From IMG/VR virus record IMGVR_UViG_2534681675_000020: a DNA stretch of 11,067 nt, one strand, 5' to 3'. The DNA comes from a virus (lineage: Duplodnaviria > Heunggongvirae > Uroviricota > Caudoviricetes). The position numbers were made by a program, and so were the translations under genes. Numbering within the stretch: position 1 is the stretch's first letter; every line of letters begins with the position of its first letter. The notes below the pieces were generated by a model that was not told the DNA's origin, made no database searches, and saw only the letters and a program-made list of their open reading frames with translations. This document shows positions 1,786-11,067 of this stretch, in pieces.

Positions 1786-1865
1786 GGATCCCGAAAAATT
1801 TTCATAAATAGTGAAAACGCGCGAGGTCGCCGCCCCGTAACAGGTCCATATGCCGGAAAGGACCC

Positions 1866-1890
1866 GCAAAAAAGCCGGATTTCTCCGGCC
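1866..1890 (-). terminator. rho-independent terminator of the capsid operon
   Basis: Hairpin GCCGGA-TTTC-TCCGGC (1874-1889) preceded on the + strand by A6 (1868-1873), i.e. a hairpin followed by a U-run on the minus strand. It lies 6 nt after the stop of the 137-aa gene. Confidence 0.5.
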
Positions 1891-1895
1891 TTGTC

Positions 1896-2309
1896 TCAGA
1901 TGGTTTTCAGTATGCGATCAATGTCGCCGTCATCGCCCGGGTTTCTGCCATCGTATGCCATGCCAGCTGATACGGCTTGTGGGCTGTGCATGTCCATAAA
2001 GTTTTCAAAGGCTGCGGTAAGCTCTGGTGCAACCTTCTGGCGTTCCTGTTCTATGGTCATGTTCAGGATGTTTTTAGCCGTATCAACATCAATACAAGGC
2101 ACGTTTGCCATTGCACGTAACAGCGGCTGATAGTCGTCAGATTCATGAAGCGACATAATCGCATCAGCGCGCGGCTTGTCCTGTTCTTCCAGTTTGTTAA
2201 GTTGATATATAGCTTCGTAGGTTGATAGACATCTGTCAGCCATTGCCCGCGCTTCAGCTTTAAATTTACTCGCCAGCGGTAGCGCCATGATACTTTCATT
2301 CGTTGCCAT
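1896..2309 (-). CDS. hypothetical acidic protein, 137 aa (last gene of capsid operon)
   Basis: ATG at 2307-2309 preceded by AGGGGGG; the ORF is open upstream to 2420 but that part overlaps the decoration gene. Starts 13 nt after the decoration gene stop. No recognisable motif. Confidence 0.45.
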   Translation of the reverse strand: MATNESIMALPLASKFKAEARAMADRCLSTYEAIYQLNKLEEQDKPRADAIMSLHESDDYQPLLRAMANVPCIDVDTAKNILNMTIEQERQKVAPELTAAFENFMDMHSPQAVSAGMAYDGRNPGDDGDIDRILKTI

Positions 2310-2322
2310 CGTTCCCCCCTGC

Positions 2323-2658
2323 TTATCGCGCCAGCGGCTGAACAGATACACCAGAACCCGCAAAGGCGGCACATTTTTTCGCGTCGGTGTCGACGCTCTC
2401 AGGCCAGTTAACGGCGGCAATATTGAATATCCCCGTCTTGTAACACTGTGCTGATTTCTGCGTTGACGTGTCCACGGGATACGCCGTCAGATAAACAGCC
2501 TTGCCAGATTCCTGACCATCCCACGGCTTAAATTCGCCATTGTCCGCCAGCATCAGCGGGGTAAATTCCTGAATAACGCCAGCATCAGCGGCAAAATGTA
2601 CCAGCGTCGTGGCAACCTGCTGACTGCCTGCAAATAACTCAATGTATGGAGTGTCCAT
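2323..2658 (-). CDS. head decoration protein, lambda gpD-like
   Basis: 111 aa. Segments TPLMLADNGEFKPWDG and YKTGIFNIAAVNWPESVDTDAKKCAAFAGSGVSV align with remembered lambda gpD ([52 protein letters not shown]). GGGGGA RBS. Confidence 0.7.
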   Translation of the reverse strand: MDTPYIELFAGSQQVATTLVHFAADAGVIQEFTPLMLADNGEFKPWDGQESGKAVYLTAYPVDTSTQKSAQCYKTGIFNIAAVNWPESVDTDAKKCAAFAGSGVSVQPLAR

Positions 2659-2669
2659 AGAATCCCCCG

Positions 2670-3725
2670 TTAACCAATTTTGACGGTAACAAATTTGCGA
2701 ATATCTGCCGGAACCGGCTGCGGTGCGCTGTGCGTCTGCACGTACTCAATCGCCGGATCGCCGTCCTCAATCCAGTTTTTCGGGTAAAACATGTTTTGCG
2801 TTGCGCCCGTTCTGACCGCTTCCTGATCCATAATCGCACCATAGGCCACCAGCCCTTTATTGTTGGTGTTGCCCAGGACCAGCAAATCAGGCTCAAGGAA
2901 ATATTTTTCGGTGCCGTCGCTGTCAGTGTATTTGCCGGAATAGACGATAAGGGCAATATCGCCCAGATATCCTTTAAAGCTCACCACTTCGCCCAGGTTT
3001 TTACAGGCCAGCTCTGCGGAGGACTCTGAACCACGGGAAAGATCGTACAGTTCGCGGAATTTTTTAAAGCTGCGTAACGTTCGCCATACCTCAGCGCCCA
3101 TGATCATGACGTTGGCGGGGCAACATGCTTGATCCGCATAAAGCTCGATATCATAGATTGGATCGTGGGTTTCTTTGTCCTGCTCGGACCATTTACGGCC
3201 TTTGGCCTGCTCTATGATGTTTTTTTCCGGTATCTTCCAGTCGATTTCATAGCGTTCTATGCCTTCGCCCTCAATGATGTTTTTTCCGGTCGTTATCGCA
3301 TTCACCGCCAGCCATTCCACGCGCGCTTTAATCGCGTTTATCTGGCGGCGCATGTTGCCAGTAATCAGGCGCATACGGCGATAGGTTGGGTCATTAAGCT
3401 GTGCCGGATCTTCTCCAGCCATACGTATGATGGTTTTCGTTGGATCGATTTCGTGCTTCGGCTTCATGTATCCAGGTTTAATCGTGCTGGTTTCGTACCC
3501 TTTATCGCGCTGGACCTGACTACCCACCATAGGCGAACAAAACGCCGACATCGTAACCTCTTCAATGTCCAGGGTGTCCAGCATGATGTTTTGGGTGTTG
3601 AATGTCGCCACGTTCGGGAAAAACAGCGTGGTAAACAGCGGACTGAATTTAAATTCCGCAATATCCCCGCGATTCAGGTACATGAAAAGCTGGTTAGTGT
3701 TAAGTGCCGTTGCTTTGCCTGCCAT
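2670..3725 (-). CDS. major capsid protein, lambda gpE-like
   Basis: 351 aa (lambda gpE is 341 aa). Motifs FKFSPLFTTLFF, GYMKPKHEIDP, DPAQLNDPTYRRMR, YPKNWIEDGDPA and the C-terminus ADIRKFVTVKIG are collinear with remembered gpE. The start overlaps the upstream stop (TAATG). Confidence 0.85.
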   Translation of the reverse strand: MAGKATALNTNQLFMYLNRGDIAEFKFSPLFTTLFFPNVATFNTQNIMLDTLDIEEVTMSAFCSPMVGSQVQRDKGYETSTIKPGYMKPKHEIDPTKTIIRMAGEDPAQLNDPTYRRMRLITGNMRRQINAIKARVEWLAVNAITTGKNIIEGEGIERYEIDWKIPEKNIIEQAKGRKWSEQDKETHDPIYDIELYADQACCPANVMIMGAEVWRTLRSFKKFRELYDLSRGSESSAELACKNLGEVVSFKGYLGDIALIVYSGKYTDSDGTEKYFLEPDLLVLGNTNNKGLVAYGAIMDQEAVRTGATQNMFYPKNWIEDGDPAIEYVQTHSAPQPVPADIRKFVTVKIG

Positions 3726-3931
3726 TATTCACCCCCATAATTTTTATGCATCCCAAGCGCCGCAAGTAAATAAGAGCGTACAAGTGAACCTATCGACGGC
3801 TCCGGCGTCATCAGCGGATCCAGTCCAGCCGCCACGCCAGCCTCATAGTTTTTTTTGTGGCGCTGCTTGAGCACCTCCACGATTTCGGGGCTTATGTACA
3901 CCGAAACACCGCCTTTTTTCTCTTCAGCCAT
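3725..3931 (-). CDS. hypothetical protein, 68 aa, translationally coupled to the capsid gene
   Basis: ATG at 3929-3931 with AGAGGA RBS 10 nt upstream; its stop overlaps the capsid start codon. No recognisable motif. Confidence 0.5.
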   Translation of the reverse strand: MAEEKKGGVSVYISPEIVEVLKQRHKKNYEAGVAAGLDPLMTPEPSIGSLVRSYLLAALGMHKNYGGE

Positions 3932-3958
3932 AGTAAGAAATTCCTCTTTGACTTAAAA

Positions 3959-4016
3959 AATCAGAACTGGATGTTCATCCAGTTCTGATTATAATCATGA
4001 TTGCATTTTATGCAAT
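3959..4016. promoter_or_regulatory. promoter/operator region of the capsid operon: 32-bp palindrome plus a second 7-3-7 palindrome around a palindromic -10 (ATTATAAT)
   Basis: Near-perfect palindrome AATCAGAACTGGATG-TT-CATCCAGTTCTGATT (3959-3990). ATTATAAT at 3988-3995 reads TATAAT on both strands. ATTGCAT-TTT-ATGCAAT at 4000-4016 overlaps a minus-strand -35-like TTGCAT with 16-nt spacing to the -10. Confidence 0.4.
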
Positions 4017-4095
4017 GATGTTGAGTTGTGTTGCAAATTATGAAATGATGATCCCGATCATGTGTGTCAGTGCACCAAAAAGCCTCATATGCAAA

Positions 4096-4132
4096 AGCCC
4101 GATAAGCCACCTCTGACCTTATCGGGCTTTTT
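4096..4132. terminator. bidirectional rho-independent terminator-like hairpin
   Basis: Stem AGCCCGATAAG (4096-4106) / CTTATCGGGCT (4118-4128) with an 11-nt loop, followed by T5 on the + strand and flanked by A4 on the other side. Confidence 0.45.
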
Positions 4133-4307
4133 TATCTGCCTGCAAAGATGTCGAACAAAAATTAACCACAACCATCATCTTTTTTGCATCAAAACAATTA
4201 AAAACAATAAATTACGCTCATGATGATGATGACGATAAAATCACAAAAATGCGCTTTTTTCCGCGCCTCCCGCCCCGTGTTCAGGCCCACCCCGCCAGGA
4301 GGACCCG

Positions 4308-4346: not shown

Positions 4347-4769
4347 TTAAAACGGTATGTTATCCCCGTACGGATCATCATTCCCCGCCTGTTGTTTTGC
4401 CCTGTTCAGCGCGTCAGTAGCCTGGCCCTGTTGACCTTTTTTGCCGCCCAGTCGCGCCGTTCGCGCACTGATTACACTGTCTGCGATAACCTGCCAGCCC
4501 TGCCGCGTTTCTCCGTTCTGCCCAGTCCACTGGCTGATCTGCATGTTACCCGCCACGCTCAGGAGTTCACCCTTGCGGTGCCTTTCCAGTGCTTCGGCCT
4601 GTCTGCCAAATGCCAGGACGGATAACCACATCGTCGCCGTTCCGTCATCTGCCTGGCTGCACGGAAGGGGGACCGCCATACGCGCCAGCGTCATCGGTGT
4701 GCCCTTGCTGGTCTGTTTTACCTGCGGGTCGTCCACCAGCCGCCCGTAAGCGGCTATCTGTGCTGTCAT
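4347..4769 (-). CDS. ssb: single-stranded DNA-binding protein (SSB family)
   Basis: 140 aa. OB-fold region WLSVLAFGRQAEALERHRKGELLSVAGNMQISQWTGQNGETRQGWQVIA parallels E. coli SSB ([50 protein letters not shown]); Gly/Gln-rich linker and C-terminal acidic tip ...DDPYGDNIPF (SSB ends DDDIPF). GGAGAGG RBS. Confidence 0.8.
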   Translation of the reverse strand: MTAQIAAYGRLVDDPQVKQTSKGTPMTLARMAVPLPCSQADDGTATMWLSVLAFGRQAEALERHRKGELLSVAGNMQISQWTGQNGETRQGWQVIADSVISARTARLGGKKGQQGQATDALNRAKQQAGNDDPYGDNIPF

Positions 4770-5044
4770 GATTCCACCTCTCCGGTTTTAACGTTGATTG
4801 TTGTTACCTGTTCCGCTTCGGCAATCTCCCGCTCTGTCAGCGTGGCAAAATTTGCCGCCGTCGTGGTCATGAATGCGCTTATCAGGTCGGGATGTGCTTT
4901 CGCGTATCCTTCCCCCGCGTGGCGGTCTATCGTTCTGATTGCCACCTTTAAAGCGTGCTCTGTCATGTCTAACGCGCGATATTTCGGTTCTGTTCTGTCT
5001 CTGCGTTTTTTGAGTGATTTATTAAATTTCCCTGAAGTGTGCAT
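4766..5044 (-). CDS. hypothetical protein, 92 aa, coupled to ssb
   Basis: ATG at 5042-5044 with GAGGGGG upstream; its stop overlaps the ssb start (ATGA). Basic N-terminus; no recognisable motif. Confidence 0.45.
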   Translation of the reverse strand: MHTSGKFNKSLKKRRDRTEPKYRALDMTEHALKVAIRTIDRHAGEGYAKAHPDLISAFMTTTAANFATLTEREIAEAEQVTTINVKTGEVES

Positions 5045-5092
5045 ATTTATTTTTACCCCCTCGTTTAAAAAGTTTTGAGTTGTGCCTCCCCT

Positions 5093-5319
5093 TGTCTACC
5101 TTATCTACCTTAGTGGCCCTCATGCCAGTAATGGCGCGGCTTTCAGCGGGGTAGAGTGCTTTTATCCACTATCTACCCCGTGTCTACCTCCCTGTCTGAT
5201 TCAGGTAAAATCAGGTAGAGAGGGTAGATAGTGGGTAGATAGTAAAAAAAGGCTATCTACATAACTTAATGCACTGAATTAAATGTATTTTTCTTTACTC
5301 AGGTAGACAGGGTAGACAG
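5093..5319. repeat. iteron cluster (GGTAGA[CGT]AG-type, both orientations); putative origin of replication
   Basis: At least 11 copies: TCTACC-type at 5093-5100, 5102-5109, 5170-5177, 5181-5188, 5254-5261; GGTAGA-type at 5149-5158, 5214-5220, 5223-5230, 5234-5240, 5302-5310, 5311-5319. An AT-rich stretch lies at 5262-5300. It starts 14 bp after the primase stop. Confidence 0.6.
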
Positions 5320-5332
5320 CAATTACAAAAAA

Positions 5333-7087
5333 TTATAAAAACGCGTCGCACTCGTCTGTTGTTATTGCGTTAGTCTGCGTTACTCCCTTAACTTTCCGCG
5401 TAATATATTCATGTCCGTAAACTTTCGCGGCTGGCTTCATAGCCTTGCCAAAGTCATTTACGTTTAGCGGTTTGCTCCTGCCTGCGTACGCCATAAACGC
5501 CAGATAGACGCGATAAAGGCTGTTCCTGGTCGTGTACTTCACTGAATCACCACCGCCACCCATCATCAGGCCGCGCGCTTCCTCCAGAAAATTCAGGAAC
5601 TGGCAAAACTCAATAACCGGATCCGTCTGTTGCTTTATTGCCAGTGCTTCATCACCGTCACGCTGTTCCAGTAGTAAAGCCCGTGCCTTCTCAGGGTCGG
5701 TAAAGTTCGCCAGCAATCGGCGGATAATGACAGGGATTTCAGCCGCAATCTTTTCCGGTAGCTCCCTGTCTTTTTCGGCCTCACTGACGATATTGTCGAA
5801 ACGGAAAATTACGCGACGACGTGACACACCTCCGGCCCGTTCGGTGAATATCATCGGGTTATTGTTGGTAGCCAGCACCACCGCCCTGATTACCGCCGTA
5901 AAACGCTTTTCATATTTCGGGTTAATTTCCACGGGGTCGCCGCCCGTGATTTTCTTGATGCCCGTTCCTTCGCCTGTATATTTCGGCTGGTCAGCCAGGA
6001 CGATAAGACGACTCCCGACAACCTGCGCACGTCCACCAGCATCATCAAGCGATGTCATCTCCGCGCTCACCGTGTTCTGTTTCCCTGCCAGAAGGCTGGC
6101 TATGTGCGTGAATGTACTTTTACCGCTCCCGCCGTCTCCGGTGGCCTCAATAAACATCTGCCAGTCGTACCGGTTCGCCATAATCATGTACAGCGCGGCA
6201 CATATACGCATCATCTTGCGCGGGTCTTTTCCGGCTACGTGCTCAAGCCATTTATGAAAGTTTGGCGCGTTGTCGCGGATATTCTCCCCTGGTGCTGGTG
6301 GCGTGTACTCAATACCGTTGTGCGTGGTGATCCAGTTCTCCGGCGTGTGCGGGGAAAATTCCCCCGTTTTCAGGTCAAGCGCACCATTGGCGAACGGCAG
6401 CAAATCGCCGGACGGCTCGCCCATTGGTTCGGCAATAACTTTTAACGCTTCCACGGCGTTATTGATTACGCGCTTGCTGAAAGTGGCCCTGTGCTCTGAA
6501 TAGATCGCCACCATTTCGCGGCTAAGTTCCATTGTGCTGACCGGACACCATACCCCGCCGCGCCATACGTAAACGATTTCACTTTCAGGATGTACGCAAA
6601 CGCCATCAAAGCGATCGGCAAGCAGCTGCGCGCGCTCACTGTCCGCCATCTGCGAAAGTTGCGCCTTTTGCTTTACCGGAAGCTCAATGACCAGACCATC
6701 AGAAAGATTCTGTCGCTCACGGGCCAGATATTCGCGCCAGTTCTGCACCTCTTGGCCGTGCATACCCTCAGGATAAAAATTTGCATCCTGTACGCCTGCC
6801 GCCGCCAGCTTCTGGCCAATCGCCTTTATCATTACTGGCGCAAGATATCCGGCCCTGAATATGCGCACGGATTTTCTGCCTTCCGGCACAATTTGCAGCT
6901 TATCCAGTTCTGATAACTGCTGCTCCCCAAGCCACACAGGAGGCTCATTATCTCCGGCCAGACGCGCGTCATGTTCCTGCCATTGTTTTGCGTGTGACCA
7001 GGCATCACTACCCGCAAAAATAATGACTTCTGTTTCTTTGTGTTTTATGCCGCGTGACTGCTGTTTTACGTTCGGTGCCAGTTTCAT
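5333..7087 (-). CDS. P4-family DNA primase/helicase (replication initiator)
   Basis: 584 aa with Walker A GDGGSGKST, a downstream Walker B-like LIVLAD and a primase-like N-terminal half; architecture typical of phage/plasmid P4-alpha-type primases. Start overlaps the upstream stop (ATGA). Confidence 0.85.
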   Translation of the reverse strand: MKLAPNVKQQSRGIKHKETEVIIFAGSDAWSHAKQWQEHDARLAGDNEPPVWLGEQQLSELDKLQIVPEGRKSVRIFRAGYLAPVMIKAIGQKLAAAGVQDANFYPEGMHGQEVQNWREYLARERQNLSDGLVIELPVKQKAQLSQMADSERAQLLADRFDGVCVHPESEIVYVWRGGVWCPVSTMELSREMVAIYSEHRATFSKRVINNAVEALKVIAEPMGEPSGDLLPFANGALDLKTGEFSPHTPENWITTHNGIEYTPPAPGENIRDNAPNFHKWLEHVAGKDPRKMMRICAALYMIMANRYDWQMFIEATGDGGSGKSTFTHIASLLAGKQNTVSAEMTSLDDAGGRAQVVGSRLIVLADQPKYTGEGTGIKKITGGDPVEINPKYEKRFTAVIRAVVLATNNNPMIFTERAGGVSRRRVIFRFDNIVSEAEKDRELPEKIAAEIPVIIRRLLANFTDPEKARALLLEQRDGDEALAIKQQTDPVIEFCQFLNFLEEARGLMMGGGGDSVKYTTRNSLYRVYLAFMAYAGRSKPLNVNDFGKAMKPAAKVYGHEYITRKVKGVTQTNAITTDECDAFL

Positions 7088-7383
7088 TTTTTACCCCTGA
7101 ATCCGTTAATCATGGTTTTCAGCTTCTGGATGTTTGCCCGTGCCCTGGCGTTGCTGGTGGGCACGTTATGCGGCGCGGTCTGTACCAGAGAAAAATCACG
7201 CCGGAACTGATAAACAGGCATCACGCAATCATATTCGTAACCTTCACGGCGGTAAGTTACGCACCGTCCCGCCACGCTTTTAATCGTTACCGTGCCGCCG
7301 TAGTTATCCCGGAAAATATCGCCGGGGCGGATTTCAGGCCGAGCGAGGCCACTGGCAGTAAAGCCAGAATTTTTCTGTTTCAT
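7084..7383 (-). CDS. hypothetical protein, 99 aa, coupled to primase
   Basis: ATG at 7381-7383 with GGAGAA RBS; its stop overlaps the primase ATG. No recognisable motif. Confidence 0.5.
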   Translation of the reverse strand: MKQKNSGFTASGLARPEIRPGDIFRDNYGGTVTIKSVAGRCVTYRREGYEYDCVMPVYQFRRDFSLVQTAPHNVPTSNARARANIQKLKTMINGFRGKK

Positions 7384-7388
7384 GGTTT

Positions 7389-7616
7389 TTATTCTCCGGT
7401 GTGATGCGCTTTATTATTCTCGTGAATTGCCATCACTGTATTTAATTCGTTAATTACTGGCGTTAATAATGTGTGCACGGCAGAAAACATCATGGGATAT
7501 GATTCATCGCCATTTTCCGGCACTTCCATTAACTTAAGTAATAATGCCTCCATTTCCTTTGCGCGGATTAATGCATTCTCAGAATGAATAAGAACATTAA
7601 AGGGTATTTTATGCAT
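7389..7616 (-). CDS. hypothetical protein, 75 aa (AT-rich gene)
   Basis: Preferred start ATG at 7614-7616 (MHKIPF...) with GGGAGA about 9 nt upstream; this start overlaps the stop of the upstream gene by 8 nt (ATGCATAA). The track start at 7652 lies inside the upstream gene. Locally AT-rich by eye. Confidence 0.45.
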   Translation of the reverse strand: MHKIPFNVLIHSENALIRAKEMEALLLKLMEVPENGDESYPMMFSAVHTLLTPVINELNTVMAIHENNKAHHTGE

Positions 7617-7839
7617 CACACAGTTTCTCCCTGATTCTTTTAGTGTCCTCATTGAGGATGTCTGTAGCTTTTGTCAGTGAGTTTTTGATAATTATTTTTA
7701 TTGTTTTAAATTTTCTTTTGTCGTACTCCGACTGTGATTTCCTCTCCATGATCTCTACCATGCAATTTATATCCACAAGCGCATGTATCAGTACTTTCAA
7801 TGCTTCGCCTGCTGCGTCCGGCGTGTTTTTATTGCACAT
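7609..7839 (-). CDS. hypothetical protein, 76 aa (AT-rich gene)
   Basis: ATG at 7837-7839 (MCNKNTPDAAGE...) preceded by AGGAGG with 5-nt spacing. The track ORF extends to 7881, but that upstream start has no RBS. Confidence 0.5.
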   Translation of the reverse strand: MCNKNTPDAAGEALKVLIHALVDINCMVEIMERKSQSEYDKRKFKTIKIIIKNSLTKATDILNEDTKRIREKLCDA

Positions 7840-8443
7840 GGCGCACCTCCTGACGAATACGGGCGGCGAATACAGCAACACAACCGGACGGGCAACGACT
7901 ACGCGCTTCGCGTTCCGTCCAGGCGGTTACGTGGATGATTTGGGATTCTGACGCGCCAAAGATGATAAAGCGCCAGATAAAGGCAGTTTGAGAATGTACG
8001 AGGGCAGGGATAGTAGCCATGTTGGCAGCCTCTTCGTTAGGTTTAATAAACCCACCGCAGGAAACGCCAATTTCGCTGGCGGTGGACTGTACAGGGTTGG
8101 CGTAACCGGTTAACGAAGAACCCGGCGCGGATTGCTCCGCCCCCATACAGCCCACCATTGATAAGGTGTGACTATCCGGCACAAAAAAACACGCAGGGCG
8201 CGTGTTGTGCGCTTCGTTAAATACCAGGACGCCAATCCCGGCACCAGATTTTGCTGGTGCGGATAAATCATAGCCCTGGCTGGCAATGGCGATCAACTGG
8301 TTTTTCTGGCGTGCTTCCTGTTCGCTGGTGGCCTCAATGGTAATCACGCGCGGTTGTGCTGTGCTCAGGGCGATAAAACGCCAGATATATTTATTCAGGT
8401 TGTGCGAGTCCCGCCCTTGCGGGTGTATGGTATGATTTAACAT
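7829..8443 (-). CDS. hypothetical protein, 204 aa, with a diverged internal repeat; first gene of the leftward early operon
   Basis: ATG at 8441-8443 with GAGG 5 nt upstream; C-terminus overlaps the next gene by 11 nt. N- and C-terminal segments repeat: IWRFIALSTAQPRVITIEATSEQEAR versus IWRFIIFGASESQIIHVTAWTEREAR. It is the C-terminal part of a 423-codon open frame whose upstream part is judged non-coding. Confidence 0.4.
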   Translation of the reverse strand: MLNHTIHPQGRDSHNLNKYIWRFIALSTAQPRVITIEATSEQEARQKNQLIAIASQGYDLSAPAKSGAGIGVLVFNEAHNTRPACFFVPDSHTLSMVGCMGAEQSAPGSSLTGYANPVQSTASEIGVSCGGFIKPNEEAANMATIPALVHSQTAFIWRFIIFGASESQIIHVTAWTEREARSRCPSGCVAVFAARIRQEVRHVQ

Positions 8444-8525
8444 AGCTACCTCGATACTCTCGTTATCGTTGGTGGTTAGAAGCCCGGTTAGTGTTAGCGC
8501 ACTGCCGGGTTTCGTCGTTTCTGCA

Positions 8526-8622
8526 CCTTGTATCAACAAGGTGTAAGACACAATGTAAAATAATAGTGTCTTACACGTCAACCCTTCAAAATAATTTTTT
8601 TTCGTGTATATTGTCTTACACC
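8526..8622. promoter_or_regulatory. divergent control region: three copies of operator motif GTGTAAGACAC plus a sigma70-like promoter for the + strand gene
   Basis: GTGTAAGACAC at 8541-8551, inverted GTGTCTTACAC at 8566-8576, third copy TGTCTTACAC at 8612-8621; small palindrome CCTTG-TATCAA-CAAGG at 8526-8541. -35 TTCAAA (8585-8590), 16-nt spacer, -10 TATATT (8607-8612). Confidence 0.45.
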
Positions 8623-8642
8623 AAAAACATAAGGAGTTAGAC

Positions 8643-8822
8643 ATGGCAACAGGTCCAAAGAATGCAAAATCACAATCTGTAACTGCACGTATTGCCCATG
8701 AAATTATTGAAGGCATGGAAAACGTGAAAGAAGAAGGCGAAAGTACAGGGCAGTTTATAAGTGCAGCCATGCGCGGCGAGATCAAACGCCGCCAGCGCCG
8801 CAAGGCCAAAGAGCAGGAGTAG
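8643..8822 (+). CDS. small DNA-binding-like protein (possible ribbon-helix-helix fold), 59 aa; candidate island regulator
   Basis: ATG at 8643 with AGGAG 6 nt upstream. A short beta-like segment SVTARIAHEII is followed by two predicted helices and a basic tail KRRQRRKAKEQE. It is the only convincing + strand gene in the window. The fold is inferred, not searched. Confidence 0.5.
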   Translation: MATGPKNAKSQSVTARIAHEIIEGMENVKEEGESTGQFISAAMRGEIKRRQRRKAKEQE

Positions 8823-8925
8823 CTCCACCGGAATTTTTTTCCGGTTACGCTTTGCCCACCAGCCGCAAATGTGGCATTGTTGGCTATGCTCATGCGTTGG
8901 GGATAACGTGTAGCTTGTGTCGAGG

Positions 8926-8953
8926 GGCCACCGTAGCGGGTGGCCTTTGTTTT
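8926..8953 (+). terminator. rho-independent terminator
   Basis: Stem GGCCACC (8926-8932) / GGTGGCC (8939-8945), loop GTAGCG, followed by TTTGTTTT. Confidence 0.45.
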
Positions 8954-9049
8954 GCCTGTTATCCGGCAATTGTGGCGCTTCGTCACACGGTTGATATAAT
9001 TCCACTGCACTGATCCATTTTTTTCGCAGCAGGTTAATTGTTCGCAAGG

Positions 9050-9077
9050 GCGCTCCGGCAACGGGGCGCTTTTTGTT
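9050..9077 (+). terminator. rho-independent terminator with GNRA loop
   Basis: 8-bp stem GCGCTCCG / CGGGGCGC with one G-U pair, loop GCAA, followed by TTTTTGTT. Confidence 0.45.
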
Positions 9078-9104: not shown

Positions 9105-9311
9105 TTACGCAGCCGTTCCGCGCGCTTCTTCCTCGCGCTCTTTCAGCCAGGCCAGCACTTCATCTTCATACCAGCCAACACGGCGCAGACCGATTTTGAA
9201 GCCTTTCGGGAATTTTCCGGCGTTGATCATGTCCTGTAGCGAACTGTCTGCCTTGATGCGCAGAATATTTTTTACTTCCTGACGGGTAAGAATTTTTCTG
9301 ATTGTTTCCAC
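9105..9311 (-). CDS. alpA: AlpA-family phage transcriptional regulator/excisionase-like protein
   Basis: 68 aa with GTG start at 9309-9311 and GAGG RBS. Motif ...LRIKADSSLQDMINAGKFPKGFKIGLRRVGWYEDEVLAWLKER is typical of the AlpA/Phage_AlpA family (HTH followed by a conserved W). Confidence 0.75.
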   Translation of the reverse strand: METIRKILTRQEVKNILRIKADSSLQDMINAGKFPKGFKIGLRRVGWYEDEVLAWLKEREEEARGTAA

Positions 9312-9481: not shown

Positions 9482-9724
9482 TTACCGTTTCCACTTCTTA
9501 GGTCGCCCACCGCATTTAAGGCTGGTGGGCCTCAGCACCTTGTCGATACTTTCAGCCAGATTTTTCGATGCGCCACGCGAGCGCAAAAAACTGACTACCT
9601 CGTGTTTTGTGGGGGCAGTTGATTTGTCTTCCGGATCGTACGTTGACCAGAATTCACGATTTGCCATTAAGGCCAGTTGAAGGCCTTCACCATAGGCAGG
9701 GGATACCTTTTCATTGAAAAACAC
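9482..9724 (-). CDS. hypothetical protein, 80 aa (GTG start)
   Basis: GTG at 9722-9724 preceded by AGGAG with 8-nt spacing; basic C-terminus GGRPKKWKR. Lies between the integrase and alpA. No recognisable motif. Confidence 0.4.
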   Translation of the reverse strand: MFFNEKVSPAYGEGLQLALMANREFWSTYDPEDKSTAPTKHEVVSFLRSRGASKNLAESIDKVLRPTSLKCGGRPKKWKR

Positions 9725-9825: not shown

Positions 9826-11067
9826 TTACACGGCACGGATACCCCTTTTACCACTGGCTATGGTCACTCCGGTTGCTGCGGCCTCTACAAATTCCCCCCA
9901 CCAGCGCATAAGCACCACGCGCTTTTCCAGGTAGTTACTTCGGTTATATGCTCGCCTTACCTCGTTCGTGTCCACGTGTGCGAGTGCGGCCTCGATTACG
10001 TCCGGCTCGAATCCTTCCTCGTTCGCTGCTGTGCTGAATATGGCGCGTAATCCATGAGACACCAGCACGCCAGCGAATCCCATTCGCCGCAATGCTGCGT
10101 TGGCGGTCTGGCTGTTCATAGGCTGCCGTGGGTCTTTCAGGCTAGGGAAAACGTGCTCGCGGTGGTGGCTGATTGGCTTCATGGCCTCCAGTACCGCCAT
10201 AGCCTGACTACAAAGCGGGATAACGTGATCACGCCGCATCTTCATGCGTCCGGCGGGGATCGTCCATTGTTGCGCGTCCATGTCGATTTCTTCCCAGCGT
10301 GCTGACGATGCTTCAACCGGACGGGTTACAGTCAGTAGCTGCCATTCAATCAGTAATCTGGTCTGCCGTTCTGTTGCTGATACGGATAAAGCCTGCATAA
10401 GCTCCGGCAACTGTTCGGGGCGGATTGTTGGCATATGTTTTTTTACAGGGGAGGGGAACGCCTTACGCACATTCATAGCCGGATTGGCATCAATCAGCCC
10501 ACTGTTGGCGGCGTAATCCATTACCTCATTAACGCGCTGTAAAACCCGCTTGAGTGTTTCCAGGTTGCCGCGCTCCTTGATGGGTGTAAGCACCTCAACG
10601 AACCTTCGGGCAGTGAGGGTATCTATTGGCGTGTTGCCGATGAACGGGAATACATATTTATCCAGCGAACGCCAGATGTCTTTAATCGTGTTGGGGGCCA
10701 GATTCTGGCTGATTTTCACCTGGTACCATGCCGCCGCCACATTTTCGAACGTGTTCCCTTGTCTTCGGGCCTCTGCCTCTCGTTTTTTCTTCTCATGGTC
10801 CTGCGGGTCAGTTCCGGCACTGATTAACGTCCTGTACTCGCTACGGCGTTTTCTGGCATCAGCCAGGGAAACATCTTCAAGCGATCCAAAACTCAGCAAT
10901 ATTCTTTTTTTGTCCGATGGTCGGTAGTAGGAAAATCGCCAGAGTTTTGATCCGGACGGTTTTACCAGGAGAAAAAGCCCACCGCCGTCCTGTAGGGTGT
11001 ACTCCTTTTGCGCTGGTCTGGCTGCTTTGATCTGCACTGTGGTTAATGGGGGTGTTTTTCTCGCCAT
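9826..11067 (-). CDS. int: tyrosine recombinase, P4-type integrase
   Basis: 413 aa. N-terminal arm-binding motif LQDGGGLFLLVKPSGSKLWRFSYY; catalytic-domain signatures HGLRAIFSTAANEEGF...AALAH and the tyrosine region RRAYNRSNYLEKR. The start codon sits at the window edge, so the true start could lie beyond it. Confidence 0.9.
   Translation of the reverse strand: MARKTPPLTTVQIKAARPAQKEYTLQDGGGLFLLVKPSGSKLWRFSYYRPSDKKRILLSFGSLEDVSLADARKRRSEYRTLISAGTDPQDHEKKKREAEARRQGNTFENVAAAWYQVKISQNLAPNTIKDIWRSLDKYVFPFIGNTPIDTLTARRFVEVLTPIKERGNLETLKRVLQRVNEVMDYAANSGLIDANPAMNVRKAFPSPVKKHMPTIRPEQLPELMQALSVSATERQTRLLIEWQLLTVTRPVEASSARWEEIDMDAQQWTIPAGRMKMRRDHVIPLCSQAMAVLEAMKPISHHREHVFPSLKDPRQPMNSQTANAALRRMGFAGVLVSHGLRAIFSTAANEEGFEPDVIEAALAHVDTNEVRRAYNRSNYLEKRVVLMRWWGEFVEAAATGVTIASGKRGIRAV

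Follow-up and report, generated by a model that had tools for sequence, protein, structure and literature searches.

Gene content of the island

The window, by which the whole analysed stretch of 11,067 nucleotides is meant (IMG/VR record IMGVR_UViG_2534681675_000020, Caudoviricetes), is a phage satellite, a phage-inducible island (PICI) of the EcCICFT073 type. It carries int, alpA and a primase gene, and beyond the primase follow an SSB gene, a lambda-E-like capsid gene and a decoration gene; this order, together with the similarity to the prototype, is that of the Gram-negative PICIs. The replication and capsid modules (1789-4133 and 4441-7414) were 92% identical to EcCICFT073 at the nucleotide level. 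Between alpA and the leftward early operon lies a gene of 59 codons on the opposite strand, here called the RHH gene for the ribbon-helix-helix fold predicted for its product. In the loci examined, an Icd-like gene heads the leftward operon, and the same transcript runs into DUF4222 and the primase. The preliminary description had taken the 59-codon gene for the only one on the + strand, and this holds for convincing protein genes but not for candidate small RNAs, which are present on that strand. The strong ribosome binding site described for it is evident as AAGGAG (Table 1).

Table 1. Features of the window, with the coordinates of the regulatory region and its neighbouring genes.
Feature	Position	Strand	Remarks
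D5-type primase gene	5333-7087	-	Pfam D5_N; in early operon, as is DUF4222 (Pfam)
First leftward frame, Icd-like/Ash-like/Icd-like	7829-8443	-	Pfam Phage_ASH, NCBIfam phage_ICD_like; opens the early operon
C4 antisense RNA	8075-8162	-	Rfam; inside leftward transcript
c4-a1b1 and isrK	8184-8273	-	Rfam; inside leftward transcript
Candidate extended -10 of SymR-like RNA	8428-8436	+	TGgTATGAT
SymR-like structured RNA	8444-8520	+	Two hairpins, U-rich tail; antisense to leader, SD and AUG of first leftward gene
O1	8541-8551	+ orientation	GTGTAAGACAC, exact; spans about -6 to +5 of P_L
P_L	8552-8581	-	TTGACG (8581-8576), 18-nt spacer, TACATT (8557-8552); predicted start ~8545
O2	8566-8576		GTGTCTTACAC on the + strand, exact reverse complement of GTGTAAGACAC; in P_L spacer, abuts -35
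P_R of RHH gene	8585-8612	+	TTCAAA-16-TATATT; predicted start ~8619
O3	8611-8621		TTGTCTTACAC, 1 mismatch; over last 2 nt of P_R -10 and over +1
RBS	8631-8636	+	AAGGAG, 6 nt 5′ of ATG
RHH gene, 59 aa	8643-8822	+	ORF; YlcI/YnfO family
Intrinsic terminator of RHH transcript	8923-8948	+	10-bp stem, T-rich tail; conserved in locus L001 and EcCICFT073
alpA	9105-9311	-	Pfam Phage_AlpA; convergent with RHH gene
Integrase gene	9826-11067	-	Pfam integrase

The prototype EcCICFT073 has the whole module, comprising an RHH gene (C_RS30120; 14474-14653 of our locus L084, NC_004431.1 1380473-1380652), the divergent Icd-like gene C_RS30125 and three operators, GTGTGGCCCAC in two copies and then TGTCCCCCAC, with the strand QALKARV in the protein. 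The module is found there under the recent RefSeq locus tags C_RS30120, C_RS30125 and C_RS30800. Among the 5426 complete E. coli genomes, at least 806 contain 80% or more of the region 8444-8830.

Several further features of the island were observed. Three mixed-orientation copies of ACTATCTACCC are located just 3′ of the primase gene (5166-5243) and are probably iterons of the island replication origin. The interval separating the SSB region from the capsid operon has perfect inverted repeats at 3959-3990 and 4093-4131 (AATCAGAACTGGATG and AAAAGCCCGATAAG, each with its complement), which may serve as terminators or in the control of the late operon. At ~370-1650, two - strand ORFs of 301 aa (517-1422) and 70 aa (1380-1592) resemble in appearance the pair of frames of an IS3-family element; they break the right-hand accessory region of the island, and homology to EcCICFT073 picks up again at 1557-1866. 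Repeats of AAACCGGACAT are found near these ORFs, at 1689-1786. Of 18 related loci, eight (L003, L007, L009, L043, L045, L058, L060 and L065; ~6450-7040, - strand) have the Rfam int-alpA RNA (RF02996) in the interval from int to alpA; it was not detected in the window, where an 80-aa ORF without family match (9482-9724) occupies its place.

The spacer between the RHH gene and alpA (8849-9077, + strand) is 93-99% conserved in L001 and EcCICFT073. Within it are TTGTGG-18-TATAAT (8971-9000) and, at 9046-9073, a hairpin followed by a T-run; this hairpin is invariant and is kept in E. ruysiae too. This may be a + strand sRNA of about 70 nt convergent with alpA, or mainly a one-way terminator.

The 59-residue protein and its family

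The product of the gene had been described as RHH-like, and the predicted secondary structure agrees: a strand at about residues 10-17 (SQSVTARI), helices at 19-28 and 35-58 and a conserved basic tail, EIKRRQR, that is, the N-terminal beta-strand followed by two helices of the MetJ/Arc/CopG fold. No match to a curated RHH model or a solved RHH protein was obtained: Pfam returned no family for the window protein at E ≤ 10, a sequence profile search of the PDB found no relative and Foldseek against the PDB no match. Pfam searches with 10 distant family representatives yielded nothing decisive, one of them giving a weak PSK_trans_fac match (E 0.006), and tblastn against 50,697 phage genomes found no homologue.

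With NCBIfam NF041551 (cut-off 30) the protein scored 66.8 bits over residues 9-50, which places it in the YlcI/YnfO family; it also matches phrog_949, of unknown function, and RefSeq labels its homologues only as 'YlcI/YnfO family protein'. K-12 YlcI itself matches PF13132 (DUF3950; E 2e-20), a family in which neither the window protein nor the CFT073 protein gave a match, and hhalign of the window protein with K-12 YlcI returned a probability of 7%. By these comparisons the two are only remotely related, and the context of K-12 ylcI differs, being next to cos/nohD in DLP12. The family is small, with 87 clusters at 50% identity among 1.84 billion representatives, and the named matches are Enterobacterales without exception.

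The most conserved stretch of the protein is residues 46-52 (8778-8798), in the basic C-terminal helix extension EIKRRQR(R/K)K, which extends past the second helix of the canonical RHH fold. It might touch the DNA backbone, hold dimers together or offer a site for a partner.

Putative operators and predicted promoters in the window

An 11-bp motif had been reported in three copies, two of them forming an inverted repeat and the third overlapping the -10 and +1 of the gene's promoter. The reported arrangement was reproduced throughout: O1 and O2 are inverted with 14 bp between them, O3 carries the single mismatch, and P_R as found by a promoter scan puts O3 where it had been placed. Every 11-mer is a near-palindrome of the form GTG-N5-CAC. 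The cluster, defined as two exact 11-mers no more than 100 bp apart with a third copy of at most one mismatch nearby, was matched in none of 1000 dinucleotide-preserving shuffles of the window. This test was used in place of a plain motif count, which over the whole window with up to two mismatches was not above chance. The motif has no further copy elsewhere in the window.

The same scan found P_L, and thereby two back-to-back divergent promoters, both overlapped by operators, in keeping with the divergence from the early operon that had been noted before. O3 is predicted to be systematically the weaker site, since the first base of its frame belongs to the -10 and is non-consensus.

Concerted change of the operators across related loci

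For comparison, 80 loci encoding relatives of the protein were collected, one genome per species, and 58 had enough upstream sequence. In 50 of these 58 the -10 (TATACT or TATATT) is at exactly -36 from the ATG, O3 starts at -32 and O2 at -77; the approximately 50 loci with this fixed geometry come from other Enterobacterales, about 30 genera. O2 is directly followed by GTCAA, which is TTGAC on the opposite strand. Of 49 unique loci, 47 have a P_L -35 of the form TTGA[CAG][GA] abutting O2, and 47 have a P_L -10 of the form TAnnnT 17-18 nt away. O1 has counterparts of the same class in the related loci, -97 to -112 relative to the ATG and in either orientation, over or just after the predicted leftward start.

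The GTG...CAC frame is constant, whereas the central five bases (N5) vary between elements, in all three sites in concert. The N5 of O2 and O3 differ on average by 0.74 mismatches within a locus versus 3.47 between loci (19 strand classes), and are within one mismatch of each other in 16 of the 19 strand classes (permutation p ≤ 1e-5). The operator class tracks residues 11-15 of the predicted beta-strand: QSVTA, QSVTV and QSITV go with TCTTA, QSLKS and QALKA with TGGCC, QMTTV with AAATA, KKLEA with TCAGC (operator GTGTCAGCCAC), QQIVS with AATGC, LQVSV with AACAC and QKIHA with TGTTC, among other pairs. In Xenorhabdus, proteins with about 75% identity to that of the window have the same operator as the window, whereas the E. 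coli protein P0047, also 75% identical and with an identical C-terminus, has the QALKA strand of EcCICFT073 and a different operator class; because of this contrast, overall protein similarity is insufficient to explain the classes. As far as computation can test it, this concerted change supports the preliminary reading of the repeats as operators.

A blind prediction gave the same association from the DNA side. IMG/VR was scanned by the DNA pattern GTGTAAGACAC-N(10-18)-GTGTCTTACAC alone, which returned 28 contigs, mostly satellite-sized. The gene was present, 65-66 nt after O2, in all 27 contigs that include the downstream side. The strand in these 27 is SQSVTARI in 25 and SQSLTARI in two, O3 is of the same class in all of them, and at least 12 distinct protein sequences are represented.

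Two limits apply to the association between strand and operator. Mutual information between protein and operator peaks at residues 12 and 14, and is also high at the non-strand residues 24 and 44, so in a set of 46 related sequences it does not resolve which residues make the contacts. Moreover, a stretch of about 130 bp contains both the operators and the N-terminal codons, which are inherited as a block, so the association is partly one of linkage; the window is 96% identical to EcCICFT073 up to 8483, 62-78% identical over 8484 to ~8775 and fully identical in the last 46 bp. The stronger argument is that three separated sites are co-identical within otherwise conserved promoter DNA. Sites changing in concert would need a reader encoded by the element, and since the adjacent RHH protein is the sole candidate, it is taken as the probable reader.

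A hairpin or attenuator formed by the O1-O2 repeat was considered and rejected, since the orientation of O1 to O2 differs between classes: several have the two as direct repeats, and others, the window's among them, as inverted ones. The centre-to-centre spacing of O1 and O2 varies from 22 to 35 bp, so cooperative binding is not obviously phased.

The repeats might instead serve a different factor (AlpA, integrase arm sites, a replication initiator or a host protein), with the ORF unrelated to them. The island does encode AlpA, an integrase and a primase-initiator, and the constant GTG/CAC frame could be read by a common factor. AlpA, which the preliminary description had named as a possible owner of the repeats, was rejected, as an identical AlpA is found with three operator classes (L019, L050 and L051/L076), and a second identical-AlpA pair (L004 and L028) with two. 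Conversely, the window's operator class co-occurs with three unrelated AlpA types. It is likewise found with at least four Icd-like variants and so does not follow the Icd-like neighbour, and the central 5 bp also differs among elements with the same Icd-like type. The iteron-like repeats are located elsewhere (5166-5243), a host protein cannot account for at least 12 element-specific classes, and in about 50 loci the sites sit exactly over the promoters of the ORF and of its divergent partner. A factor other than the RHH protein is therefore considered very improbable.

RNA elements in the leftward leader and transcript

Between O1 and the first leftward start codon, a structured RNA (8444-8520) is conserved in 43 distinct loci, with an anti-SD in the loop of its first hairpin. 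In the alignment 97.7% of cells are paired on the + strand, versus at most 52% in slid controls, and 14 of the 16 pairs change on both sides. The covariation score of 0.458 was reached by none of 500 shuffles (0.19 in the shuffles). Pairing on the - strand falls to 88.7%, and the alignment has 61 G-U cells and no A-C; the better pairing on the + strand argues for an antisense RNA rather than a leader structure.

Rfam symR (RF01809) scored 33 bits on this RNA, below the gathering threshold of 61. Reciprocally, a model built from it (R1) matched the annotated K-12 symR with 19.3 bits (E 0.012), in the same register relative to the start codon. The RNA thus resembles SymR and may be related to it, and is not filed as a member of that family.

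The leftward transcript of the window also contains known antisense elements. Rfam gave isrK (RF01394) 80 bits against a gathering threshold of 50 and C4 (RF01695) 75.3 against 45, placing both in their families, and c4-a1b1 42.9 bits, slightly under its threshold of 46.7. Flanked by two Icd-like segments, the cassette (8075-8273) is embedded in an Ash-like frame. Eighteen loci of other species that keep the RHH module lack it, and BLAST of EcCICFT073 against the window gave no match across 7415-8302. The idea that the cassette belongs to the module universally was therefore rejected; it has the look of an insertion adding a further layer of control.

The combination of a small repressor and an antisense RNA next to an Icd-like gene could also be read as an addiction or toxin-control unit, in which an RHH antitoxin-like repressor and a type-I-like antisense RNA would restrain a toxic Icd-like division inhibitor and stabilise the island. 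Against this, the transcript extends to DUF4222 and the primase in the loci examined, so that the whole replication operon would be controlled; the putative toxin and the RHH gene are transcribed away from each other, whereas type II systems co-transcribe their genes; and no domain for an interaction between RHH protein and toxin is evident in the 59 residues. We regard such a unit as improbable.

Comparison with known systems

In the immI region of phage P22, the RHH repressors Mnt and Arc act together with the sar antisense RNA, which controls ant. By analogy, this region is the closest working counterpart of the module described here: both have a small RHH repressor gene divergent from the operon that it silences or is predicted to silence, operators over back-to-back promoters, autoregulation (predicted here) and a short cis-antisense RNA over the ribosome binding site of a downstream gene. 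The two share no detectable sequence homology. P22 has one 17-bp Mnt or one 21-bp Arc operator, whereas here there are three 11-bp sites of one class, and the target in P22 is an antirepressor and the element a phage, unlike the icd-primase early operon of a satellite.

In its tolerance of site orientation, the closest analogue is the omega repressor of pSM19035 (PDB 1irq, 2bnw), which also recognises short repeats. Omega, however, binds 7-bp heptads in arrays of 7-10, in contrast to a fixed set of three 11-bp sites, and its residues and regulon (copy number, partition, toxin-antitoxin) are unrelated to those of the window protein. For the biological role, the Stl/Rpr regulators of Gram-positive PICIs (SaPIs; PMC6092414) would be closest, lying beside int and divergent from the xis/pri-rep operon and keeping the island quiescent. 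Stl differs in being a large HTH protein inactivated by binding of helper-phage proteins, in contrast to the 59-aa RHH protein proposed as regulator here, next to which the island has AlpA as a distinct activator. None of Mnt/Arc, omega and Stl/Rpr is homologous to the window protein by sequence.

The immunity regions of P1 (immI, c4-icd-ant) and P4 (P_LE, CI RNA, seqA/seqB) resemble the leftward operon, which likewise starts with an icd-like gene and in the window contains the C4 and isrK matches above gathering. The P1 promoter is under C1 and that of P4 under Vis and the CI RNA; both lack an RHH repressor such as is predicted for the window.

With SymE-SymR of K-12, the module shares a cis-antisense RNA of about 77 nt that begins just inside the ORF, covers AUG and SD and folds into two hairpins with the same apical GUGUUnGCGCAC, the sub-threshold matches in both directions falling in the same register. 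It differs in that the downstream protein is Icd-like and not SymE, and in the symR score below gathering. Upstream of symE, K-12 has a LexA-box-like CTGTATATATCATCAG where the RHH operators sit here.

A proposed repressor model for the island

Judged from the sequence comparisons, the RHH protein most likely binds the three 11-bp sites in its own promoter region and silences the early replication operon. We put the probability that it is an autoregulated maintenance repressor of the icd-primase operon, similar to P22 Mnt, at about three in four.

One RHH dimer would bind each GTG-N5-CAC site. The constant palindromic frame would be read by the invariant residues N7, K9, S10 and R16, and the asymmetric central 5 bp by the variable strand residues 11-15, presumably chiefly 12 and 14. 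Occupation of the two full-match sites O1 and O2 would block the start site and the spacer and -35 of the strong, near-consensus P_L, keeping the icd-like gene, the small ORFs, DUF4222 and the primase off in the resident island, if the sign of regulation is as assumed. The weaker O3, over the -10 and +1 of the repressor's own promoter, would provide negative autoregulation and hold the repressor at a set level. Operators and gene together would form an exchangeable immunity cassette with at least a dozen specificities. The SymR-like antisense RNA, if constitutive, would clear leaky transcripts at the SD and AUG of the first leftward gene, and in the window island the P4/P1-type C4/isrK RNA would be an additional layer.

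AlpA is required and sufficient for the induction of EcCICFT073 and is itself turned on by the helper (PMC6092414), so any repressor must be bypassed by a novel route. Leftward transcription driven by AlpA may converge on the RHH gene, disturb its expression and read into the early operon. Such read-through is possible because alpA converges on the RHH gene with no - strand terminator between them, the scan from 9105 to 8822 having found no terminator-like site on that strand. Alternatively, the helper could encode an anti-repressor.

The preliminary description had left the choice between a repressor and a Cro-like protein, and the same contacts could indeed serve a Cro-like or establishment role, the protein being made mainly after induction or when the island enters a new cell, and shutting down the early operon late. 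The divergent back-to-back layout is that of the lambda cro/cI regions, and induction of EcCICFT073 by AlpA alone (PMC6092414) is easier to understand if the RHH protein is not a maintenance repressor. A Cro-like protein, however, would have to be held off in the resident state, and no second regulator gene that could do this at P_R is visible; the leftward operon is without a recognisable DNA-binding repressor, P_R has a single site, which is of the class proper to the protein and weaker than the other two, and the P_R -10 is near-consensus and conserved. Because no other visible regulator could switch P_R off, we expect the resident island to produce the protein, infer a maintenance role and consider the Cro-like one unlikely.

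Implications for phage-inducible islands

The founding paper on Gram-negative PICIs left a global repressor unclear (PMC6092414), and later openly searchable papers make no mention of the RHH gene. The literature on YlcI, YnfO, DUF3950 and PICI with ribbon-helix-helix, outside subscription-only papers, contained no functional study that we could find. The YlcI/YnfO family may supply the repressor whose absence from Gram-negative phage-inducible islands had been assumed. Devices of this kind are well known, and the interest lies in PICI biology.

A wider reading is put forward tentatively, its chances being in our estimate somewhat short of even. In Gram-negative PICIs and cf-PICIs, RHH proteins of the YlcI/YnfO type would then fill the vacant place of a master repressor and would also determine immunity. 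Nature would have produced a dozen or more mutually orthogonal specificities on a single 59-aa scaffold by varying a few residues of the beta-strand. They would act in series with a SymR-like RNA, and the chromosomal SymE-SymR leader would be an evolutionary relative in which LexA sites have replaced the RHH operators.

If the protein is a maintenance repressor, the silence of the island, and how helper phages and AlpA overcome it, would become directly testable, and the operator classes would correspond to immunity (incompatibility) groups of satellites. The co-varying pairs of strand and operator would then provide a code for the specificity of RHH proteins that needs no design, and small orthogonal repressors could be drawn from them, and the link to SymR would suggest an origin for a chromosomal toxin-antitoxin-like locus.
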